Part shown: positions 7,521 through 56,173 of the stretch, piece after piece | Numbering within the stretch: the stretch's first letter is position 1 | How the letters are laid out: each line of letters starts with the position of its first letter | NCBI GenBank assembly: GCA_963807605.1 | Contig: CAWECG010000001.1 | Span: forward strand, 352,001-416,000 | Reading direction: 5' to 3' | DNA length: 64,000 nt | Source: Candidatus Bathyarchaeota archaeon | GTDB taxonomy: Archaea; Thermoproteota; Bathyarchaeia; 40CM-2-53-6; RBG-13-38-9 | Position numbers and translations under genes: made by a program | The notes under the pieces: model-generated | Seen by the model: the letters and a program-made list of their open reading frames with translations, nothing else | Databases searched by the model: none | Told to the model about the DNA's origin: nothing

Positions 7521-8646
7521 GAGCTTCTTGCAATATTATATTTTCTGTGTTAATTTTGTGAACTGGATTGGTGACCGCATTTTATCGATGTGTCCGTGCT
7601 TGATCGCGGATAAGGCAGTTGCCAGTAGAGCCAGCAGACAGAGAAGTACATGTGATATGACGTTTCTTAGGCCGCGTGTTCGAAGCTGAGACAATCCGAA
7701 GTGTGTCTTGAGTCTTGAGAATGTTCTCTCCACTGAGGATCGACGTTTATACAGTTGTTTCAGACGGGCAGGTCCGTGTGAGCGGAACTTCCGGTCGATT
7801 CGTAGAACCTGTTTGCCCTTCATCTGGTTTCTAGGGTAAGGTATGATTGGTTCTATGCCCATAGATCTTGCCTTGTCTCTGAAAGCTTCGCTGGAGTATT
7901 GTGAGTCTGCAGTCATGCTCTTCCACCTATGTTTCTTCTTCAATGCTTTATGGAGGAGGTGGGGTGCAACTTTTTTCTCATTTACATTTGCAGGTTCTAT
8001 GGTGACTGCCCGCGGCATCTCGCTGATGGTGTCTACAGCAAGGTGTATGCCGTAGCCTAAGATCACGTTTCTACCTTGTTTTCGTAATCTGGCTTCAGAA
8101 TCGGATAATCCACACTGGGTATTGTGAGGATCTCTTCGACTGTAAGCTTTGATGAATGTGACGTCTAACGCTAGGATTTCAGAGTCCAGAATGTCCATGT
8201 GGTCAAGCTGTTTGATCAGACGGTTCATGAGGCGGTGAAATCCTTGAGGGCCTATTCTACGTCGAAACCTCAGAAGTATTGATGGGTGATATGGATTCTC
8301 TGATTCCTTGATGTCGCAGAGTTTGCAGAGTTCACCGTCGCTCCATAGAAGTCGGTATAGTTCCTCGTAGCTTTCTATGTGTCTTAGCCGTTTGACAAGC
8401 TCTGCTTTGAACATTCCAAGTAAATTTCTATGGGGTCTGCCGACGCTGCTTCTTCTTCCATAGCTTCTTTCTAAGACTTGTTCTACAAACGTTAAATCCA
8501 AAGCCTGAAACAGATCATACAGAGCCTTACACTCGCTCACTTCTTTTTCACCAGAAACGGCATGAGTGGGTGTAAAGCTCATCGATCTTATGATCAAAAA
8601 CACGTATACATCTTCATGTTAAGCCCAAGAATATTGCAAGAGGCTA
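7521..8646 (-). mobile_element. Insertion sequence, IS5/IS1182-like, 1126 bp, copy 1
   Basis: Terminal inverted repeats AGCYTCTTGCAATATT; GCGCGC on both sides; same length and ends as 29542-30667. Confidence 0.92.
7536..8603 (-). CDS. DDE transposase (DUF772 + DDE_Tnp_1 type)
   Basis: ALDVT, ADSQY, YKRRSSVERTFSRLK motifs. Confidence 0.92.
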   Translation of the reverse strand: MFLIIRSMSFTPTHAVSGEKEVSECKALYDLFQALDLTFVEQVLERSYGRRSSVGRPHRNLLGMFKAELVKRLRHIESYEELYRLLWSDGELCKLCDIKESENPYHPSILLRFRRRIGPQGFHRLMNRLIKQLDHMDILDSEILALDVTFIKAYSRRDPHNTQCGLSDSEARLRKQGRNVILGYGIHLAVDTISEMPRAVTIEPANVNEKKVAPHLLHKALKKKHRWKSMTADSQYSSEAFRDKARSMGIEPIIPYPRNQMKGKQVLRIDRKFRSHGPARLKQLYKRRSSVERTFSRLKTHFGLSQLRTRGLRNVISHVLLCLLALLATALSAIKHGHIDKMRSPIQFTKLTQKI

Positions 8647-21732: not shown

Positions 21733-21936
21733 CTATAGCGAGGGCGTGTGCGCGTGTCTTTCTGAATGCAATTGTCCACCCGTTGCCCAATTGCTCTTTG
21801 GCGCCTCATAAATGACGATCTCGACTGCTTCCTTGGGAACCCCTAAATCTTCAAAAACTTTAGTTATCCCTTCGACTGTTTTCTTCTTGTTCTCAGGGCG
21901 AATGCCCTCCCAAACAGAAACTTGAACTATTGGCAT
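21733..21936 (-). CDS. 4-oxalocrotonate tautomerase family protein
   Basis: N-terminal MP, NWATGG. Confidence 0.9.
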   Translation of the reverse strand: MPIVQVSVWEGIRPENKKKTVEGITKVFEDLGVPKEAVEIVIYEAPKSNWATGGQLHSERHAHTPSL

Positions 21937-22108
21937 TTCATTTTCACCTAAAATAACACTTTGCTATTTGGCCTAATCAATATGTTCCCTCAATAAAGCG
22001 CACGCGTAGACGGAGAGATCATCATGCACAAACTAGACAAGACCACAGCGAGCGCTCAACAAATATAAGTATGCGAAGTAAAAGCTGTAAAAATAGAAGG
22101 CTGATAGA

Positions 22109-23083
22109 ATGGAAACAAAACGTCCTGAACATGTGCGAACCATTAGTATTGAAGAGCATTTCTTTTCCACAGCGTTCAGTAGCACCATTAATAGTAGCAC
22201 GCCCATTGGATTACCATGGGCGCAGCTGACCGACTTGGGTGCTGGCCGCTTGAAAGACATGGATGCGGGTGGAATCGATCTCCAGGTCGTTTCCCATAAT
22301 GTGTTTTCTTTTGAGGGGGGCGACATCGTGCAGCGTGTTCAGGAAACAAATGATCAACTGGCTGCCGCGGTTAGAAAATATCCGACTCGTTTCGCAGGTT
22401 TTGCCACCCTGCCTATGACCAACCCGGAGGATGCGGCCAATGAACTGGAAAGGACAGTACGCTCGTTTGGATTTAAAGGCGCTATGATTAACGGCATAAC
22501 GAATGGACTTTTTCTAGATGATCCTTCATTCCTGCCTATTTTTGAGCGCGCCATCGCACTAAGCGTACCAATTTACCTGCATCCTGGTTTTCCACCCGCG
22601 CCAGTACGAGAGGTATACTATGCAGGTCCATTTGATCCTAGTGTGAACTTCATCTTATCGAGGCAAGGCTGGGGCTGGCATTCCGAGGTCGGACTGCATG
22701 CACTGCGGCTGATCATATCAGGTATCTTTGACCGCTTGCCAACATTGCAGATCATTATCGGACACATGGGAGAGATGATTCCTTTTATGCTCAGTCGTAT
22801 TGATGATACCCTTACACCAGTCGCTAAGCATCTGAAACACAAGGTATCAGAATACATCCACGGGAATTTTTATATCACGACCAGCGGTTTCTTTACGAAT
22901 CCGCCACTCTTGACTGCTCTACAAACTATAGGCTCCGATCGCATAATCTTCTCAGTTGATTATCCTTATAGCTCCAATGAGCAAGGGCGAGCGTTCCTGG
23001 ATAATGCTCCAATCAGTCCGGACGATAAGGCGAAAATCAGTCATCTCAATGCAGAGCGACTTCTGGGGCTCGCGAGAGAATAA
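22109..23083 (+). CDS. Amidohydrolase-2 family (aromatic decarboxylase/ACMSD-like)
   Basis: EEH, IYLHP, GHMGE, SVDYPY. Confidence 0.9.
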   Translation: METKRPEHVRTISIEEHFFSTAFSSTINSSTPIGLPWAQLTDLGAGRLKDMDAGGIDLQVVSHNVFSFEGGDIVQRVQETNDQLAAAVRKYPTRFAGFATLPMTNPEDAANELERTVRSFGFKGAMINGITNGLFLDDPSFLPIFERAIALSVPIYLHPGFPPAPVREVYYAGPFDPSVNFILSRQGWGWHSEVGLHALRLIISGIFDRLPTLQIIIGHMGEMIPFMLSRIDDTLTPVAKHLKHKVSEYIHGNFYITTSGFFTNPPLLTALQTIGSDRIIFSVDYPYSSNEQGRAFLDNAPISPDDKAKISHLNAERLLGLARE

Positions 23084-23228
23084 TTGGACCAACGTGAGGA
23101 TTCGAACAGCGCGCGCTAGCCGTATTGGGCGCTGACGCCCGCGGGACAGAAGGAGTAGGCGTTCACCCTATGAAGAATATTCTTCTGAACCCTGACAGCG
23201 CGCGCTCACCCATTTTTATTCTCTATCT

Positions 23229-23879
23229 TTAAGGCCCACCTGTGAAATATGCCATGACAGTGTGATCATAGTTCATCACGATTGTAACCGAGGCAGAGGG
23301 GGCGTAATTAACACCGTCAATAGTCCAGTAGCTTAAGGCATAGCCGTTATTGGGGTAGGCGGTTACCGTCACAACTGATCCAGCAGAATACGAGTAAGTC
23401 CCAATTGATGGAGAGGTAACACCCTGTCCGCTAGTGTATATCGTAAGCTGAGCCGTTACCATTAAGCCGTTGTTATAGAGGTTCCAATTGTAAGGGTGAT
23501 GAGTAACGCGCGTGCGCGCTAAACTGGGGGTAGCCCCGCCAATTGTTGCTTGGGCCTGCGTCGGAGTCGTTATCACGTTCCAAGACTTGGTCCCGCTCAA
23601 AGACTTGGTTCCGCTCCAATGTGTGGGTGCGGAGAAGTTTCCATGCGTGGGATAGGTCGTGTTAAGGATTCTACCCTCGTTTGGTTTCGTTTTATCTGGC
23701 GCTGCATTTACTGTCGCTACAAGTGTGGCGCTCGTCGCTAGCGCCGAACCTATAACTACTACGATCATCACTGCTACCGTAAGTGGGGCGATCTTAATTT
23801 TTGCTCTCATTTTTCCCACCATACTGTAATAATAATGGATATCTAGGTATGTGGGTTGTGGAACTTTGTGAGTGAACAA
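23229..23879 (-). CDS. Secreted protein with C-terminal InlB B-repeat-like domain, copy 1 (true start probably ~23810-23822)
   Basis: Signal peptide; VTVTAYP..GY.LSYW; paralogue of 55445-56173. Confidence 0.7.
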   Translation of the reverse strand: MFTHKVPQPTYLDIHYYYSMVGKMRAKIKIAPLTVAVMIVVVIGSALATSATLVATVNAAPDKTKPNEGRILNTTYPTHGNFSAPTHWSGTKSLSGTKSWNVITTPTQAQATIGGATPSLARTRVTHHPYNWNLYNNGLMVTAQLTIYTSGQGVTSPSIGTYSYSAGSVVTVTAYPNNGYALSYWTIDGVNYAPSASVTIVMNYDHTVMAYFTGGP

Positions 23880-23980
23880 TGTTAACTTACTAGTTATGTA
23901 AGAGTGCGCGCGTCCACAAAGAACCGGCGTCTCCTAGACTTCTTATGGGTCTTTCCGGTATCCTTTCGATCTTCTTGATT

Positions 23981-24036
23981 GTGTGTGCCTTAGCTGGTGA
24001 GCACACACACTAAAACGACTGGCTCGCTACACTCGC
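23981..24036 (-). repeat. CTCACCA site plus S-module at the end of a duplicated segment
   Basis: GTGTGTGCCTTAGCTGGTGAGCACACACAC..GGCTCGCTACACTCGC. Confidence 0.9.
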
Positions 24037-24090
24037 CGTCGATACTCAGACAAAGAACAGACTCTGAAGTTTTTCTAATAAGCCCCAAGC

Positions 24091-25606
24091 TTATCCAGTT
24101 TGTTTTGTGCCACATTGACTGCAGAATTCAGAGCCAGGAGATAATTCGGCTCCACACTTGACGCAGGAAGTGGGAACTTCTACAAACTGCTGACTTAGCG
24201 TCGCTTGTTTGGGTCTATGCGTGATTCTTGATTCTCGTCTCCGAAGGAAAACCAAAACGACAACAGCAGCTACAACTACTCCCACGATTCCATAAATGTA
24301 TAAGTTGTCAATCACGAACCCCCCAATCGCTACGGCAGGAACATCCTCTCCGTTAGCGATTGCTTCTTGTGACAGTTTGATGTACCTGTCCGCGTAAGGG
24401 CTGCCAGGATACAGTGTCTGGACCTCTTGAAATTGCTGGATCGCTAGTGAGTAGTGCTGATTCCAGTAGTAATTGAGCCCCTGCGCCCAGTAAGTATCTA
24501 TTGGTCCTCTGGTATTCTGCACGTTTACCTGGCTCATGAAGATTTTTGCAACATTTATTGGTATTAAAAAGTTCACGTTGCTCAGTTCGCCCCCTCCCAC
24601 AGGGTTTCCCGTTCCAAGGGTAGCTATTCCGATAACGTTTCCTTGAGCGTCGATTACCGGTCCGCCGCTGTTCCCATGATGGATTGATGCGTCAGTCTGA
24701 ATGAAGGTGATTTGGCCCTGACTCGTCTGGGCTGGCTTCAATGCGCTGACGGTTCCCTGAGTTATCGTCGGTTCAAGGCTCTCCAGCGAATTTCCTGAAG
24801 ATTGGGCTTGAGACACTATGCCGGGGTATCCGATGACCACTAATGGTTCTCCAACTTGGACTGTTTCCGAGTCTCCGAGACGTATAGTCGGCAAGCTGTA
24901 ATCTACATTTACCTTGATAATGGCTACATCCATCGCACCGACTTGGCCGTTGGTTACTACATTCGCGATAGCTGCATTAGCTACGATCTTTGTAATGGGC
25001 CCGTTGGATTGGGAAAGCGGGAACACGACAGCGTCGAGCACCTGCTCGTTGGTGAATTTCCCATTTGTAAGAAAGTACTGTTCAAAGGCTGCTTCAATGT
25101 TGTTGTACTGGTCTTGAGTAATCTGCCCGTTCGTCACAAGAGACTGGTAATTCTGGGCACATTGTTGGGCGAGAGAACTTATGTACTCTGCCTGGCTTTC
25201 TTGGGAGGTTGCAACATGGGCGTTTGTTACTATGTAACCGTCTGGCGTGACTATGAAGCCTGACCCCCAGGCCCCCCGTTTGAGACTGGGAGGTTAAATA
25301 CTTCAGCTGGTGAATATGGTTTCACAACATAATTACCCTGGCTGTCCGTACTGAGGGCGGTGTCATATTTGGGACCTGTGAAGTTGGCTGTATACTGATT
25401 GTAGATTAGGACCACAGCCGGTTCGTTCAGATTGGCAATCATCTCCGTGGTCGTAGGCTCGGAGCGGTTTTGGGCAGAGACTTGCCCGACCGCTGAGAAA
25501 TACGTGAGCGTTAAACCCAGCAGTACTATTAATGCAACTTTCAGTCTTAGCGTATCGAGACGATCCTTTGAAGATTTAGTTTGATATTTGTACTTAACCT
25601 TCCCAT
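24091..25606 (-). pseudogene. Trypsin-like (S1C) serine protease with TM helix and zinc ribbon, frameshifted
   Basis: SGFIVTPDGYIVTNAHV, DVAII, GNSGGP; frameshifts near 25265 and near the start. Confidence 0.8.
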
Positions 25607-25870
25607 GAAATTAGTATTATGTTTTATCCCCAACATCTTTCAGTATGTTTAGGTCTTTGAAGTATACGTCAGCTGGGTAGAGATAACCTACCCCTTGGCG
25701 TGGTCGCTGGTAGTTCCAGTAGTTCACGAACTGTTGATGGGTCGGATACATCCAGGCTTCGTATTGGTAGGCTTTGGAAGGCTTCTATCTTTCCTATGGT
25801 TGATGGCGCGCGCGTAAAGACTATAATACGCGTCAAGGGCGAATCACAGCCACAAGGAAGTAAAAGCAAG

Positions 25871-26712
25871 ATGAACTGGAAAATCCATGTCTTGTATTTA
25901 GGAGAGCTAACCACTCCTAAAGGGCTTTTCACACCAGGCCTCGACGCGAACCTACTTCTTAAAGTGCCATACCTTGGATATCTACTAGTTTCCGGGTCGA
26001 GAAAGAATTCCTTGTGGACACCGGTATCAACTCGCGTTTCGTCATCGAAAAAGCATGGGCCGGAGCTCCTGCAAAAGGGGGAGAGAAATTTCTCCTCGAT
26101 GCATTGGAGAAAAATGTTGCCCGCACTGAAGAGATCGAGGCAGTAATCTACACTCATCTACACAACGATCATGCGGGGAACTGCCATCTCTTCCCTATGG
26201 CCCGACATGTTTTTCATTACGACGAATGGGGTGAATTAGTAGACCCACTTCCCTCGATGCGGATCCGAAAACTCTTCGACCCCGACGTCATTCCTGTTCT
26301 TCAAAAATCTCGCTGCCTCAAAATAACTGATGACGGCGAGTTTACAGAAGGTATTCGACTTTACCACACCCCCGGTCACACCATCGGGGGACTGACCGTA
26401 GCAGTGGATACTTCCAATGGGACATACATCATCCCCGGAGATATCGTGAATATCTATCAGAATCTCTTCCCCAAAATGTCGTGGATGTTAGATCTTCAAG
26501 CAAAACGCATCAAGACAACACCCGCTCCAGAACCTTACGGCCCATTAGGCGTCCCCTCTGGGCTTGTGTACGATCACTATGCATGGTATCGGAGTATCTG
26601 GAAAATCCGCGGTATGCTCAAAAGCCCAAAGCACCTGTTGCCCTGCCACGAACCCGCAATATCAGGCAAAACCTTCCCAGGCGATTCAATAGACCTCGAG
26701 ATTCCTGAATGA
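25871..26712 (+). pseudogene. MBL-fold hydrolase (AHL lactonase-like), frameshift near 26005
   Basis: MNWKIHVL..PYLGYLL then VDTG, THLHNDHAG, TPGHT. Confidence 0.8.
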
Positions 26713-26856
26713 GAGAAAACATAGGGAGCGCTGAATTAATCATCAACACGATCAGTTTCAAGATTCCATATCGTTTGAAGCCTGAAGATCTATGGTGCAT
26801 TTGAATTAGCTTCTGCGTGAGAGCAGCGCGCGCTACGCTAAGAAATAGTGGAATCA

Positions 26857-26877
26857 GTCCCTTGGTGGGCACACACC
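26857..26877 (-). repeat. Degenerate CTCACCA site
   Basis: GTCCCTTGGTGGGCACACAC. Confidence 0.7.
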
Positions 26878-26957
26878 AACTAATCCAATCTGTCGCTAGT
26901 GCTTATTACGCGCACAAGTTTGTTCTCACCGACATGGCAGCAAAGACACGAATACTC

Positions 26958-27833
26958 TCATAGGCCATCAGAACGCCCACCGTTTAATGGGATTACTGAG
27001 CCATTCATGTATGATGATTCTTCGCTGCATAAGAATAATATGACATTGGCAACATCTTTCGGCTTACCAATTCCTAGTGGGATGCGTGATTCATAGTACT
27101 TCATCCATTTTCCATCATCTTTGAGGCGCAAATCATCATTCATAGGGGTATCAATTATAGTAGGCATCACCACATGTGTTTTTACGTTGTATTGAATCAG
27201 TTCTTTCGCAGCGGTCTTAGCCATTCCTATAACTCCTGCTTTTGATGCGCTGTATGCAATTTGACCTATATTTCCCTCGGCAGCTGTACTGCTAATACAG
27301 ATAATGCGTTTGTCAGGAAATGTTCGCGGAGGCGGAACTGGTTTTCCACTAGCCTTTGAGGTTTTTATCTGAGCGTCAGGCTCCTTGATCCACTTCTTCA
27401 CACACGTTTGCATGAACAAGAAGAGACCTTTAAGATTTGTATCGACCACATCACCAAAAGTCTCTTCCGAAATCTTGGCAATCATACCATCCTTCCTGAT
27501 GCCAGCACAGGCGACAAGATAATCAAGGTCACCAAACCTATCAAATACCTTATCCACACAAGCTTCAACATCGTCTTTTTTCCTTACGTCACCAGTAAAT
27601 GCGATGCATTCGCTGCAGTGTTTTTTTATTTCTCTGCGGGCTGATTCAACAGTTTCACCATTTACATCAAATATGGCAACTTTCGCTCCTCTCATCGCAA
27701 ACTGGATAGCTGTCTCTTTTCCTATGCCGCTGGCCCCACCTGTGATTAGAACAACTTTATTCTCAAAGCCCATTGGTTTGGCCTCCCGTCTTAATGCATC
27801 GATTGAAGTATGCTTATCCGTATTTATTATCAC
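26958..27833 (-). CDS. Short-chain dehydrogenase/reductase, FabG-like (likely start MGFEN ~27773)
   Basis: TGGASGIG, YSASK. Confidence 0.9.
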   Translation of the reverse strand: MIINTDKHTSIDALRREAKPMGFENKVVLITGGASGIGKETAIQFAMRGAKVAIFDVNGETVESARREIKKHCSECIAFTGDVRKKDDVEACVDKVFDRFGDLDYLVACAGIRKDGMIAKISEETFGDVVDTNLKGLFLFMQTCVKKWIKEPDAQIKTSKASGKPVPPPRTFPDKRIICISSTAAEGNIGQIAYSASKAGVIGMAKTAAKELIQYNVKTHVVMPTIIDTPMNDDLRLKDDGKWMKYYESRIPLGIGKPKDVANVILFLCSEESSYMNGSVIPLNGGRSDGL

Positions 27834-27880
27834 TCTTTCACTCGTCTCTCTCGTTTATGCTGGAAGGATGCTGTTCTTCA

Positions 27881-27905
27881 GTGTTTGTCCCATAGCTGGT
27901 GCGAC
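27881..27905 (-). repeat. Degenerate CTCACCA-family site
   Basis: GTGTTTGTCCCATAGCTGGTGCG. Confidence 0.55.
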
Positions 27906-28134
27906 TAGAAACTTTCAGGTAAATGTTTACGATTTCAAGAAGAAATACTATGGGAGAACTGCAAGGCCCTAGAAGTTAGTTTGACGAACTATCCCACTGT
28001 GTTATGAATCACCAGAAGCAAACCAAGGAATCGCACATCTAATCTCATAATGTAGAGAGGAGAGAGGGGTTTCAGGAGATTCTTCCCTGACATGCATGAG
28101 AGGGATACCTGAGCAGGATAGGGATAGGATATTC

Positions 28135-28185
28135 TGTGTGTGTGCCTTATCTGGTGAGAGCATCCGGATTTGAACCTTTAGAGCA
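28135..28185 (-). repeat. tRNA-3'-like site (28152-28176) with GGCACACACAC arm
   Basis: Minus strand reads GGTTCAAATCCGGATGCTCTCACCA-GATAAGGCACACACAC. Confidence 0.9.
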
Positions 28186-28472
28186 GGTTAATTTTCTTGT
28201 GATGCTGGAAAATAGCGCGCTCTACACCGGCCATTAAGATGGTTTTGAAGAAGCGAGGTCATCGGACTTACCCATACATGTTCTCGCTTCTCAGATTCTT
28301 AGCGCGTCGCTATGTTTTCATCGCCTTTAAGGGCTCAGGGCAAGCGTAAATCATGTCTTACAGATATTGTGTGAGTCAGCCCGCGCTGCACAAGGGATAA
28401 ATGATTGCGGGAACCTTTTGGATTTGACTAGAAAGCGCGCGTCGAGACCGTGACTTCGCTAATAGGAGGTTT

Positions 28473-29123: not shown

Positions 29124-29541
29124 AGTTTACCTGCGTCAATGGTTTAGGTGAAAATCTGACGGCATGCTTGACGCAGTATTTCTTAAGCTCTCTACCATTA
29201 AGCCTGTTTTCAAACCTGTTCAGCTTAACCCACAGGTGATTCAAAGTTTCAAGCCGGAAGTGCTTTCTTGAGAAATTCCAGATTTTCCCCCTAAACATCA
29301 TTTTCCTGTAGAACGCCCGGATCTCTGAAGTCTGCACTTCCAGCTCAGACCATCATGGATCCTTCCTCGAATAAGAAACAGAGAGGAGAATGAATGTCCA
29401 GAGAGGGAAAAGTGTACGTCTACTCTCAGCTGGCGGTTTGACGGTCAAAACTGCTGGATGCTAGGTGTTCAAGCGGCCATTCTTAGGGCATTTGCAAATC
29501 GAGGATGTCGGCGAGGTTGTAATGCCAACAAGTAAGCGCGC

Positions 29542-30667
29542 TAGCCTCTTGCAATATTCTTGGGCTTAACATGAAGATGTATACGTGTTTTTGATCATAA
29601 GATCGATGAGCTTTACACCCACTCATGCCGTTTCTGGTGAAAAAGAAGTGAGCGAGTGTAAGGCTCTGTATGATCTGTTTCAGGCTTTGGATTTAACGTT
29701 TGTAGAACAAGTCTTAGAAAGAAGCTATGGAAGAAGAAGCAGCGTCGGCAGACCCCATAGAAATTTACTTGGAATGTTCAAAGCAGAGCTTGTCAAACGG
29801 CTAAGACACATAGAAAGCTACGAGGAACTATACCGACTTCTATGGAGCGACGGTGAACTCTGCAAACTCTGCGACATCAAGGAATCAGAGAATCCATATC
29901 ACCCATCAATACTTCTGAGGTTTCGACGTAGAATAGGCCCTCAAGGATTTCACCGCCTCATGAACCGTCTGATCAAACAGCTTGACCACATGGACATTCT
30001 GGACTCTGAAATCCTAGCGTTAGACGTCACATTCATCAAAGCTTACAGTCGAAGAGATCCTCACAATACCCAGTGTGGATTATCCGATTCTGAAGCCAGA
30101 TTACGAAAACAAGGTAGAAACGTGATCTTAGGCTACGGCATACACCTTGCTGTAGACACCATCAGCGAGATGCCGCGGGCAGTCACCATAGAACCTGCAA
30201 ATGTAAATGAGAAAAAAGTTGCACCCCACCTCCTCCATAAAGCATTGAAGAAGAAACATAGGTGGAAGAGCATGACTGCAGACTCACAATACTCCAGCGA
30301 AGCTTTCAGAGACAAGGCAAGATCTATGGGCATAGAACCAATCATACCTTACCCTAGAAACCAGATGAAGGGCAAACAGGTTCTACGAATCGACCGGAAG
30401 TTCCGCTCACACGGACCTGCCCGTCTGAAACAACTGTATAAACGTCGATCCTCAGTGGAGAGAACATTCTCAAGACTCAAGACACACTTCGGATTGTCTC
30501 AGCTTCGAACACGCGGCCTAAGAAACGTCATATCACATGTACTTCTCTGTCTGCTGGCTCTACTGGCAACTGCCTTATCCGCGATCAAGCACGGACACAT
30601 CGATAAAATGCGGTCACCAATCCAGTTCACAAAATTAACACAGAAAATATAATATTGCAAGAAGCTC
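29542..30667 (+). mobile_element. Insertion sequence, IS5/IS1182-like, 1126 bp, copy 2
   Basis: Same TIRs; flanks GCGCGC and ACGCGC. Confidence 0.92.
29585..30652 (+). CDS. DDE transposase
   Basis: Protein identical to 7536-8603. Confidence 0.92.
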   Translation: MFLIIRSMSFTPTHAVSGEKEVSECKALYDLFQALDLTFVEQVLERSYGRRSSVGRPHRNLLGMFKAELVKRLRHIESYEELYRLLWSDGELCKLCDIKESENPYHPSILLRFRRRIGPQGFHRLMNRLIKQLDHMDILDSEILALDVTFIKAYSRRDPHNTQCGLSDSEARLRKQGRNVILGYGIHLAVDTISEMPRAVTIEPANVNEKKVAPHLLHKALKKKHRWKSMTADSQYSSEAFRDKARSMGIEPIIPYPRNQMKGKQVLRIDRKFRSHGPARLKQLYKRRSSVERTFSRLKTHFGLSQLRTRGLRNVISHVLLCLLALLATALSAIKHGHIDKMRSPIQFTKLTQKI

Positions 30668-31073
30668 ACGCGCGTTCGCTTCGGATTTTCGTGGTGCATT
30701 GTTCAGAGGAGAACATCATGGTTTCTATTTGAGCGATATCTGGGTGTGGCTTCGTAGGCCACTCGAAGAAACTTGTCTCTTTGAGGAAGGCTCCCATCAA
30801 CATAATGCCCATCAGGAAGAGTATTACATTGAAGCTTGCAAACCAAGGAATTTTTCTTATTCAGTATGTTTGCGCCTACGAGTAGAACGGTGAGGGCAAG
30901 GACGAAGAAAAGTCTGAAACGTCAGAATGGTATGGTACCATAGACGATAGATAGAAGGCTGCGGTCGCAACCGCCTGGAGTACGTAGCCCAAGCAGTGAT
31001 AGCAGAGCGCGAGGCACCATGAGGAAAACGAATGTTGCCGCAGCTCTCCTTTCGGTCGAGGTCTTCGACAACA

Positions 31074-54799: not shown

Positions 54800-55444
54800 T
54801 CCTCTTCAAGATGAAAGTTGATCCACTACGGTATTCTCTCTCATGATATTTGAGTCGTTTGTATAAGGTTAGAAATGCATTCATCGGTAGTCATGCTTCT
54901 TAGTGCACTAATGCAAATTGTGATAGCTCGTTTCGCTTCTCAACGATAGTAGTATGCCCTCTCCATGAGTGGATTCATGGGGGTTACGGAGGTTCTGACC
55001 TTCGATTCCATGGTGAGAGAGGCTTTATGAAGTCCCTGATTATTATTCATACATTCGTGCGCCGAAAAAATTCACTATCTGCCAAGAACTTGCTTGTAGG
55101 CCGAAATGCAATATGAGTGAATGTTGTGTAAAATGCCCTAAATGCGGCGAGAACAAACTCATCTTAGATCATCTGCATGGGTATTTTAAATGTAAGAATT
55201 GCGGGTACAAGGAAGTTCGGGAGAGAGGCTGAAGAGAGCTCATTCCGCGGTGTGACAGACCAGTTAAGCGTCTCAGAGACGGCCTGTATCTAAAACATAG
55301 ATAATGTTGTGTACATCGCACATGCAGGTCGGGCGACATACCGTTGCCAACATCTCGATGATAAGAAAGCTTAGTGCTCGCTGCACGTTTGCACGGAAAG
55401 TGAGCGCACGCCAGAAAATCAGAGCGCGCGCGTATTCTCTATTT

Positions 55445-56173
55445 TTAAGGCCCACCTGTGAAATATGCTGTCACAGTGTGATCATAGTTCATCACAAGTG
55501 TAACTGAGGCAGAGGGCGTGTAGTTAACACCGTCAATAGTCCAGTAGCTTAACGCATAGCCGCCATAGGGGTAGGCGGTTACTGTCACAACTGATCCAGC
55601 AGAATACGAGTAAGTCCCAATTGATGGAGAGGTAACACCCTGTCCGCTATTGTATATCGTAAGCTGAGCCGTTACCATTACGCCGCTGTTATAGAAGTTC
55701 CAATTGTAATTGTTCCAATTGTAATTGTTCCAATTGTAATGGTGATGAGTAATAATACCGCCATGTCTGTCATTACGTCCATTATGATTGCCTCCATTGG
55801 CCCCCCCGATAGTGAAACTGTGGGTAGCCCCGGCAACTGTTGCTTGGGCCTGCGTAGGAGTCGTTATCACGTTCCAAGACTTGGTCCCGCTCAAAGACTT
55901 GGTTCCGCTCCAATGTCTGGGGCCGGAGGAGTTTCCATGCGTGGAATAGGCCGTGTTAAGGATTCTGCCCTCGTTTGTGCTCGTTTTATCTGGCGCCGCA
56001 TTTGCTGTCGCTGTAAGTGTGACGCTCGTCGCTAGCGCCGAACCTATAACTACTACGATCATCACTGCTACCGTAAGTGGGTCGATCTTACTTTTTGCTC
56101 TCATTTTTCCCACCATACTGTAATGAAGATGGATATCTAGGTATGTAGGTTGTGGAACTTTGTTAGTGAACAA
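55445..56173 (-). CDS. Secreted protein with InlB B-repeat-like domain, copy 2
   Basis: Paralogue of 23229-23879; three 15-bp YNWNN repeats. Confidence 0.7.
   Translation of the reverse strand: MFTNKVPQPTYLDIHLHYSMVGKMRAKSKIDPLTVAVMIVVVIGSALATSVTLTATANAAPDKTSTNEGRILNTAYSTHGNSSGPRHWSGTKSLSGTKSWNVITTPTQAQATVAGATHSFTIGGANGGNHNGRNDRHGGIITHHHYNWNNYNWNNYNWNFYNSGVMVTAQLTIYNSGQGVTSPSIGTYSYSAGSVVTVTAYPYGGYALSYWTIDGVNYTPSASVTLVMNYDHTVTAYFTGGP

Follow-up and report, generated by a model that had tools for sequence, protein, structure and literature searches.

GC-alternating scars at deletion junctions in a Bathyarchaeota genome and their possible origin by end joining with self-complementary tails

Deletion accompanied by a short filler, with one to three bases of microhomology at the joint, is characteristic of polymerase theta-mediated, or synthesis-dependent, microhomology-mediated end joining (MMEJ), whose filler is copied from near each break and varies by site (PMC9303309). 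A scar of similar form is present in the genome of a Candidatus Bathyarchaeota archaeon (NCBI GenBank assembly GCA_963807605.1, contig CAWECG010000001.1), in a stretch of 64,000 nucleotides (the window; C1:352001-416000 of a 2.65-Mb genome in five contigs, G000), where 14 bases of alternating GC sequence (23507-23520) stand in one of two copies of a gene in place of 62 bp. It is one of about 500 GC runs in the genome, one of whose genes has its closest named relatives in Bathyarchaeia. Unlike the filler of theta-type MMEJ, that of the scars is one fixed self-complementary word found at unrelated sites, and is not copied from beside the break. A closer parallel may be sought in the microhomology end joining by PriSL of Saccharolobus islandicus, which is likewise archaeal, anneals ends on a few GC pairs and includes terminal transfer (PMC12019639). 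However, its indels are mostly of 1-2 bp with single C additions, as against the 8-bp alternating fillers found here (PMC12019639), and PriS occurs throughout the relatives searched, whereas the runs are patchy.

Two further comparisons concern insertion sequences (IS) and repeated palindromes. IS copy 2, whose flanks resemble the scar, shares with the IS5 group and the IS1182 family a DUF772 plus DDE_Tnp_1 transposase, short terminal repeats and a 4-bp duplication within a palindrome, but its target is a lineage-specific scar used by two families that are only 40% identical. IS1272 has a related transposase family and palindromic targets; its inverted-repeat-replacing transposition removes the target repeat and makes no duplication (PMC5678879), whereas here the run is retained and ACGC duplicated. 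The cyanobacterial HIP1 element (GCGATCGC) is, like the runs, a short GC-rich palindrome that is highly over-represented and patchy by lineage, has ties to recombination and receives insertions (PMC4390886). HIP1 is tied to methyltransferases, and its proposed origin is mismatch repair of near-matches (PMC4390886); the runs, by contrast, are of variable length, are under-represented in genes and stand complete at breakpoints. Among the papers searched, none describes scars of this kind or an IS with such a target.

At 23501-23526 the window reads GAGTAA, the 14-nucleotide insert and AAACTG, while in gene copy 2 the same hexamers enclose 62 different bases (55753-55814) that lack GCGC. The net change in copy 1 is a loss of 48 bp that keeps the frame and yields LARTRV, so that new codons have been written into an intact reading frame. 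The encoded protein (193-219 aa) consists of a hydrophobic N-terminus, a low-complexity linker, in which the scar lies, and a C-terminal Flg_new_2 (PF18998) domain; dN/dS between the copies is 0.78, at low power (39 changes). The initial annotation had described the in-frame exchange exactly as it stands in the sequence, and had also pointed out that the reverse complement of the scar equals the joined flanks of IS copy 2. This equality is exact over 16 nucleotides (23505-23520 against 29535-29541 joined to 30668-30676), and the 16-mer is single-copy in the genome.

That copy 2 is ancestral, as had been supposed, was borne out by an outgroup check. Two further in-genome paralogues match copy 2 over the first 15 of the 62 bases, and two outside homologues of about 80% identity contain the entire stretch; because all of these have the long allele, copy 1 is the derived one. 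A third allele, L184, comes from an independent assembly and is 91% identical to copy 1. Copy 1 and L184 share six derived sites, copy 1 and copy 2 three, and copy 2 and L184 one, which favours a pairing of copy 1 with L184 without settling the tree of the three. L184 has the net 48-bp loss and the right breakpoint of copy 1, with GCGCG abutting, but to the left, in place of the alternating sequence of copy 1, it retains TACTA (ancestral CACTA) and a further three bases. A single exchange of 62 bp for 14 is thus doubtful, since an allele of equal net deletion whose right breakpoint is identical still has 5-8 additional bases at its left. To judge from this alignment, the 14-mer probably arose in two steps, a loss of about 54-57 bp with 6-9 bases filled in, and a later replacement of the 5-8 bases to the left in copy 1. 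Such a history would explain the unusual length of the scar, and makes the site an example of how scars can be overwritten.

The lone A within the scar is G in L184, a CpG-type transition of the kind seen in most of 26 interrupted runs. The tandem repeat that is contracted by 30 bp in copy 1 is uncontracted in L184, so that the contraction postdates the deletion, if that deletion is shared. L184 also carries a second, decayed GC-rich patch (L184:240-280) and an altered start codon, and only a 77-aa C-terminal frame remains.

The palindrome AGCGCGCGCT is the third most frequent 10-mer of the genome, behind two CA-repeat words. The length of pure runs has its mode at 8 (197 of 517), with only six reaching 12 or more, and long runs are preceded by A 503 times and by T 75 times. 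A 12-mer pattern occurs in 59 copies, compared with 2 of its reversed control, and its count among 61 genomes is 10-59 in eleven and 0-2 in most others. Runs are clustered in variable regions and lie within long reading frames 19 times and outside them 216 times, frames making up 73% of the sequence, which does not agree with a HIP1-type spread that includes coding DNA.

Runs stand at deletion junctions far beyond chance. The ends of homology between duplicated segments adjoin runs 80 times where 9.2 are expected locally (IS ends included), and in dozens of cases homology ends at a run while the paralogue carries on without one. Relatives of the neighbouring nitroreductase gene, on independent metagenome contigs, diverge from the window at no fewer than eight positions, each abutted by a run where the window has none. 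Among 69 unique junctions with a homologue, selected on the presence of a run a few bases away at most, which makes their offsets conditional, the run starts flush with the homology end or up to six bases from it, and the homologue is runless there; in 46 of the 69 the start falls at -2 to +1 relative to the last shared base. The last shared base is A in all 15 flush junctions, and where a single A has been added it is preceded by T in 8 of 12. Host ends are thus in register with a (T)A(GC)n template to which one to three of their bases would be paired. Where both sides of a deletion could be read cleanly (about six cases only), homologues are runless at both ends of the lost stretch, and the filler is of nearly constant length: 8 bases for 252 bp, 8 for 89, 7 for 35 and 8 for 203. 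In the 89-bp case (L181:19566 against C3:236645-236735), which comes from a related strain, the filler interrupts a peptidase M29 gene. The earlier proposal that scars are newly written at deletion junctions, rather than being targets already in place, is in keeping with these runless homologues.

We tentatively read the 14-mer as a repair scar, plausibly left by end joining that is primed by microhomology and uses self-complementary (T)A(GC)n tails. Breaks would be the trigger, and a broken, resected 3' end would acquire a (T)A(GC)n or (T)A(CG)n extension. Priming would occur through one to three bases of microhomology with a short palindromic template, which could be a run already present or an oligonucleotide of fixed sequence. 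Since (GC)n is self-pairing whatever the register, the tails of two ends could anneal and then be sealed, with about eight alternating bases taking the place of the lost DNA. The process probably took place twice at 23507. Old runs would serve again as joints and decay by CpG-type transitions, and two IS families insert in them with a 4-bp duplication. Archaeal break repair by primase-promoted annealing on 2-4 GC pairs offers a precedent (PMC12019639).

Somewhat more speculatively, the runs could betray a dedicated, patchily inherited archaeal pathway of end joining in which any DNA end receives the same self-complementary linker, (T)A(GC)4, so that all ends become compatible. If this is true, linker scars would be reusable joints for the shuffling of accessory genes and landing sites to which IS families have adapted. 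The question bears on double-strand break repair in archaea that lack the standard Ku/LigD route, and a fixed, recognizable scar makes it testable, both through the search for the responsible gene by profiling of run-rich and run-poor genomes and through a predicted outcome for induced breaks. Scars also date and map rearrangements of accessory DNA.

A number of points weigh against end joining with templated tails. One-sided junctions fail to separate a new run from an old one brought by the partner, the offsets at the 69 junctions depend on how these were chosen, and clean two-sided cases are few. Run-free deletions exist, among them the 30-bp contraction in copy 1 and several in an automated indel survey, whose figure of 10 in 103 comes mostly from mis-paired repeats and is no rate. 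Untemplated CG repeats were rare with those archaeal B-family polymerases that have been assayed in vitro (PMC13061963). Finally, no candidate gene tracks run density among the genomes tested (five of the candidate makers in five genomes only). PriS is widespread among the relatives searched whatever their run density, as is an accessory PolB (probably PolB2), and an accessory primase (C3:72237-73127) does not track the runs. Ku and LigD are uncommon in archaea; this genome has adjacent genes for Ku and the LigD primase-polymerase (C1:590767-592162), and in the five genomes tested neither was found in the run-rich G004 and G052, and a LigD piece is present in the run-poor G008. A reverse transcriptase was not found in the five genomes. 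Candidates rejected for the same lack of correspondence with run density were an IS200-type transposase, the dispersed TAGCTGGTGAG repeat family and a C5 methylase, of which a weak fragment was found in this genome and none in G004 or G052, the search being confined to this methylase class.

A rather unlikely alternative requires no new synthesis: fragments cut at or beside existing runs would be joined into breaks by microhomology, and the insert would later be removed when its two end runs recombine, so that one run stays behind where there had been none. It accounts for the microhomology register as well as tailing does, and for the reuse of runs, one half-run being joined to three different partners, as seen at 28370 and 29188. 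It is also favoured by a 5.3-kb block that is bounded here by two direct 8-bp runs, where related strains have just one run. On the other hand, it demands two events for each small local deletion (35, 89, 203 and 252 bp), with all cargo lost every time, and leaves the origin of hundreds of run copies unexplained; moreover, we know of no enzyme that would make the cuts. The block itself (23108-28441) contains copy 1, a trypsin/zinc-ribbon gene and a 5'-truncated gene of the metallo-beta-lactamase fold, and is missing from two soil strains.

Less probable still is tailing without a template, in which a primase-polymerase or LigD-type enzyme would add A and then alternating G and C, or a free self-complementary oligonucleotide of 8-10 nt would be ligated as a linker. 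The narrow filler length of 7-10 suits such a mechanism, and unit-length primers of this primase family are of similar length. Ku and LigD are present in this genome, and PriSL has terminal-transfer activity (PMC12019639). Set against this are the shared A in 15 of 15 flush joints and the shared T before the added A in 8 of 12, which argue for base pairing with a template, and the failure to find Ku or LigD in G004 and G052.

The relation of the scars to IS elements is best seen at IS copy 2. Its transposase matches PF01609 (E 4.5e-29) and PF05598 (E 6.5e-7) and falls under both NCBIfam cut-offs (IS1182, 127.7 of 270 bits; IS5_4, 110 of 140 bits). The second IS family has other terminal repeats, although its flanks are alike. 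A matching 4-bp duplication borders 13 of the 14 full IS copies, the exception being IS copy 2, with GCGC on the left and ACGC on the right. In two unoccupied alleles, L181 and L183, the sequence right of IS copy 2 runs straight into the sequence left of the IS copy at C3:246507, and when the site is rebuilt with one ACGC the alignment is gap-free at the joint. These alleles therefore set the duplication at 4 bp (ACGC), and duplications of 6 or 2 bp were ruled out by the table of IS flanks. Since L181 and L183 have the run ACGCGCGT without the IS, and with independent decay in each, the run predates the IS; the site thus gives the order of events, scar first and IS second.

The flanks of IS copy 2 come from two insertion sites, so that, joined, they never were a target; a later rearrangement between near-identical IS elements probably brought them together. 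An exact-pattern search for the right flank found no match among genomic or viral contigs, and the original partner of the left flank was looked for and not found. The P-II side of IS copy 2 (30668) and the RadA-like/PolB side of the C3:246507 copy are contiguous in relatives, and may have been separated here by a large IS-mediated rearrangement or by an assembly mis-join at identical IS copies. Mismatches in the duplication (ACGC, CCGC) occur at the base beside the right IS end in the window (30668), at C3:247633 and in L018 (G012), and the outermost IS base varies among subfamilies; one donor base possibly travels with the IS. The GCGC/ACGC difference in the first base, relative to the C3 right flank, may reflect either a later transition or transposition itself. 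Elsewhere, a second-family copy (C1:587492-588596) has 14-bp perfect inverted flanks, corresponding to a palindromic target of 22-24 bp, and just left of IS copy 2 (29158-29331, minus strand) lies an accessory primase-like 5' fragment, 60% identical to the 297-aa protein of C3:72237-73127.

Could the scar itself be an IS product? In such a scheme, an excised IS with its target bases would be captured at a break and later leave, two 4-bp duplications giving an 8-bp scar and 7+7 bases of IS copy 2 giving the 14-mer. Insertion of IS elements into breaks has been proposed for bacteria (PMC11708052), twice four equals the modal run length, and three IS copies stand at paralogue breakpoints. There is also the exact 16-nt match 6 kb away, and some weight is retained for an IS-derived origin mainly because the IS junction sits at the centre of the 14-mer. 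With scars shuffled over positions, a match of this kind within 6.5 kb has a probability of 0.016 when copy 2 alone is considered, but of 0.13-0.17 when any of the 14 IS copies may supply it. Joined flanks with a match of at least 16 somewhere in the genome are found for 7 of the 14 IS copies, compared with 83 of 182 cross-paired flanks (46%). Scar and flanks draw on the same small vocabulary, and their resemblance is probably coincidental.

Other observations make an IS origin of the scar improbable. The one site with unoccupied alleles had its run before the IS, and the true unoccupied site consists of the C3:246507 left flank and the window's right flank, so that the scar cannot represent the two flanks of one insertion. 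Nor was there an IS target before the event, GCGC being absent from the 62 ancestral bases and from the aligned outgroup alleles. The right part of the scar is apparently common to the 91%-identical L184, while the IS copies are 99.9-100% identical to each other, which would make it older than they are. Real joined flanks comprise 10-14 alternating bases, a length rare among scars, and bare duplications would give no A bias. IS transposase and ends were not found in eight run-rich genomes (G003, G004, G007, G009, G010, G013, G015 and G050) and are present in the run-poor G002, G008 and G012, a comparison weakened by the loss of IS copies from draft assemblies, although in G052 contig edges still yielded IS ends. 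Inversion between the scar and IS copy 2 was ruled out, since copy 1 follows the order of the ancestral gene on either side of the scar. The initial annotation had tied the scars mechanistically to the IS or its target; a weak tie survives, in that scars serve as IS target, whereas derivation of the scar from IS copy 2 or its flanks does not agree with the age of the run, the chimeric flanks and the chance of a match over all copies. The two related IS5/IS1182-like families insert in runs with a 4-bp duplication, and thus probably exploit the scars instead of making them, as end joining with templated tails would have it.

An assembly or library artefact, suggested by the lack of any read or unitig found across 23507-23520, is highly improbable given that the same type of junction occurs in many independent metagenomes, that an independent allele has the same breakpoint, and that runs decay, avoid reading frames and are split by IS insertions with duplications. 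Short-read unitigs of ERR10755942, probably the source sample, are 100% identical to the genome and confirm the adjoining 21915-23397 as well as an IS junction on contig C3, although none reaches 23507. The sequencing runs each contain at most 10% of the stretch; contigs from four of them allowed strain comparison, with no listed piece across 23507.

Table 1. Coordinates of the scar, the gene copies, GC runs and IS elements in the window.
Feature	Position	Strand	Remarks
GC-alternating filler (scar) in gene copy 1	23507..23520		Probably two superimposed events: older right part common to L184, newer left 5-8 nt
Gene copy 1	23229..23810	-	193 aa, frame intact
Gene copy 2	55445..56104	-	219 aa, ancestral allele
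Ancestral bases missing from copy 1	55753..55814		62 bases, no GC run
30-bp tandem-repeat contraction in copy 1	23493..23496		Separate from the scar, no GC filler
GC run just downstream of copy 1	23198..23205		L184 matches as far as the run; last three run bases differ (L184 contig end)
GC run at end of copy 2 homology with copy 1	55424..55433		
GC run, left border of the 5.3-kb block holding copy 1	23108..23115		Joined directly to 28434-28441 via one 8-bp run in related strains
GC run, right border of the 5.3-kb block holding copy 1	28434..28441		
IS copy 1	7521..8646	-	GCGC duplication; right-hand run at a paralogue breakpoint, paralogue runless
IS copy 2	29542..30667	+	1126 bp, terminal inverted repeats of ~17 bp; belongs to a set of five copies that are 99.9-100% identical
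DDE transposase of IS copy 2	29585..30652	+	355 aa, DUF772 + DDE_Tnp_1, IS5/IS1182-like
Left flank run of IS copy 2	29535..29541	+	Last four bases GCGC; original site differs from that of the right flank
Right flank run of IS copy 2, ACGCGCGT	30668..30675	+	First four bases are the 4-bp target duplication; run occurs IS-free in L181 and L183

Two other kinds of repeat were observed. A REP/REPIN-like dispersed family, in which runs of (TG)n/(CA)n or GAC/CAC flank the core TAGCTGGTGAG, has about 60-90 copies genome-wide, often as inverted pairs some 60 bp apart. Its positions in the window are 19839, 21096 (minus), 23991, 44965, 56543 (minus), 59213 and 60477, and it is abundant in G000, G001, G003, G009, G013 and G045, independently of the GC runs. 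A repeat of about 30 bp starting with GACTGAGTATCC occurs about 25 times, according to the genome-wide 14-mer table, and is CRISPR-like or a tandem array.
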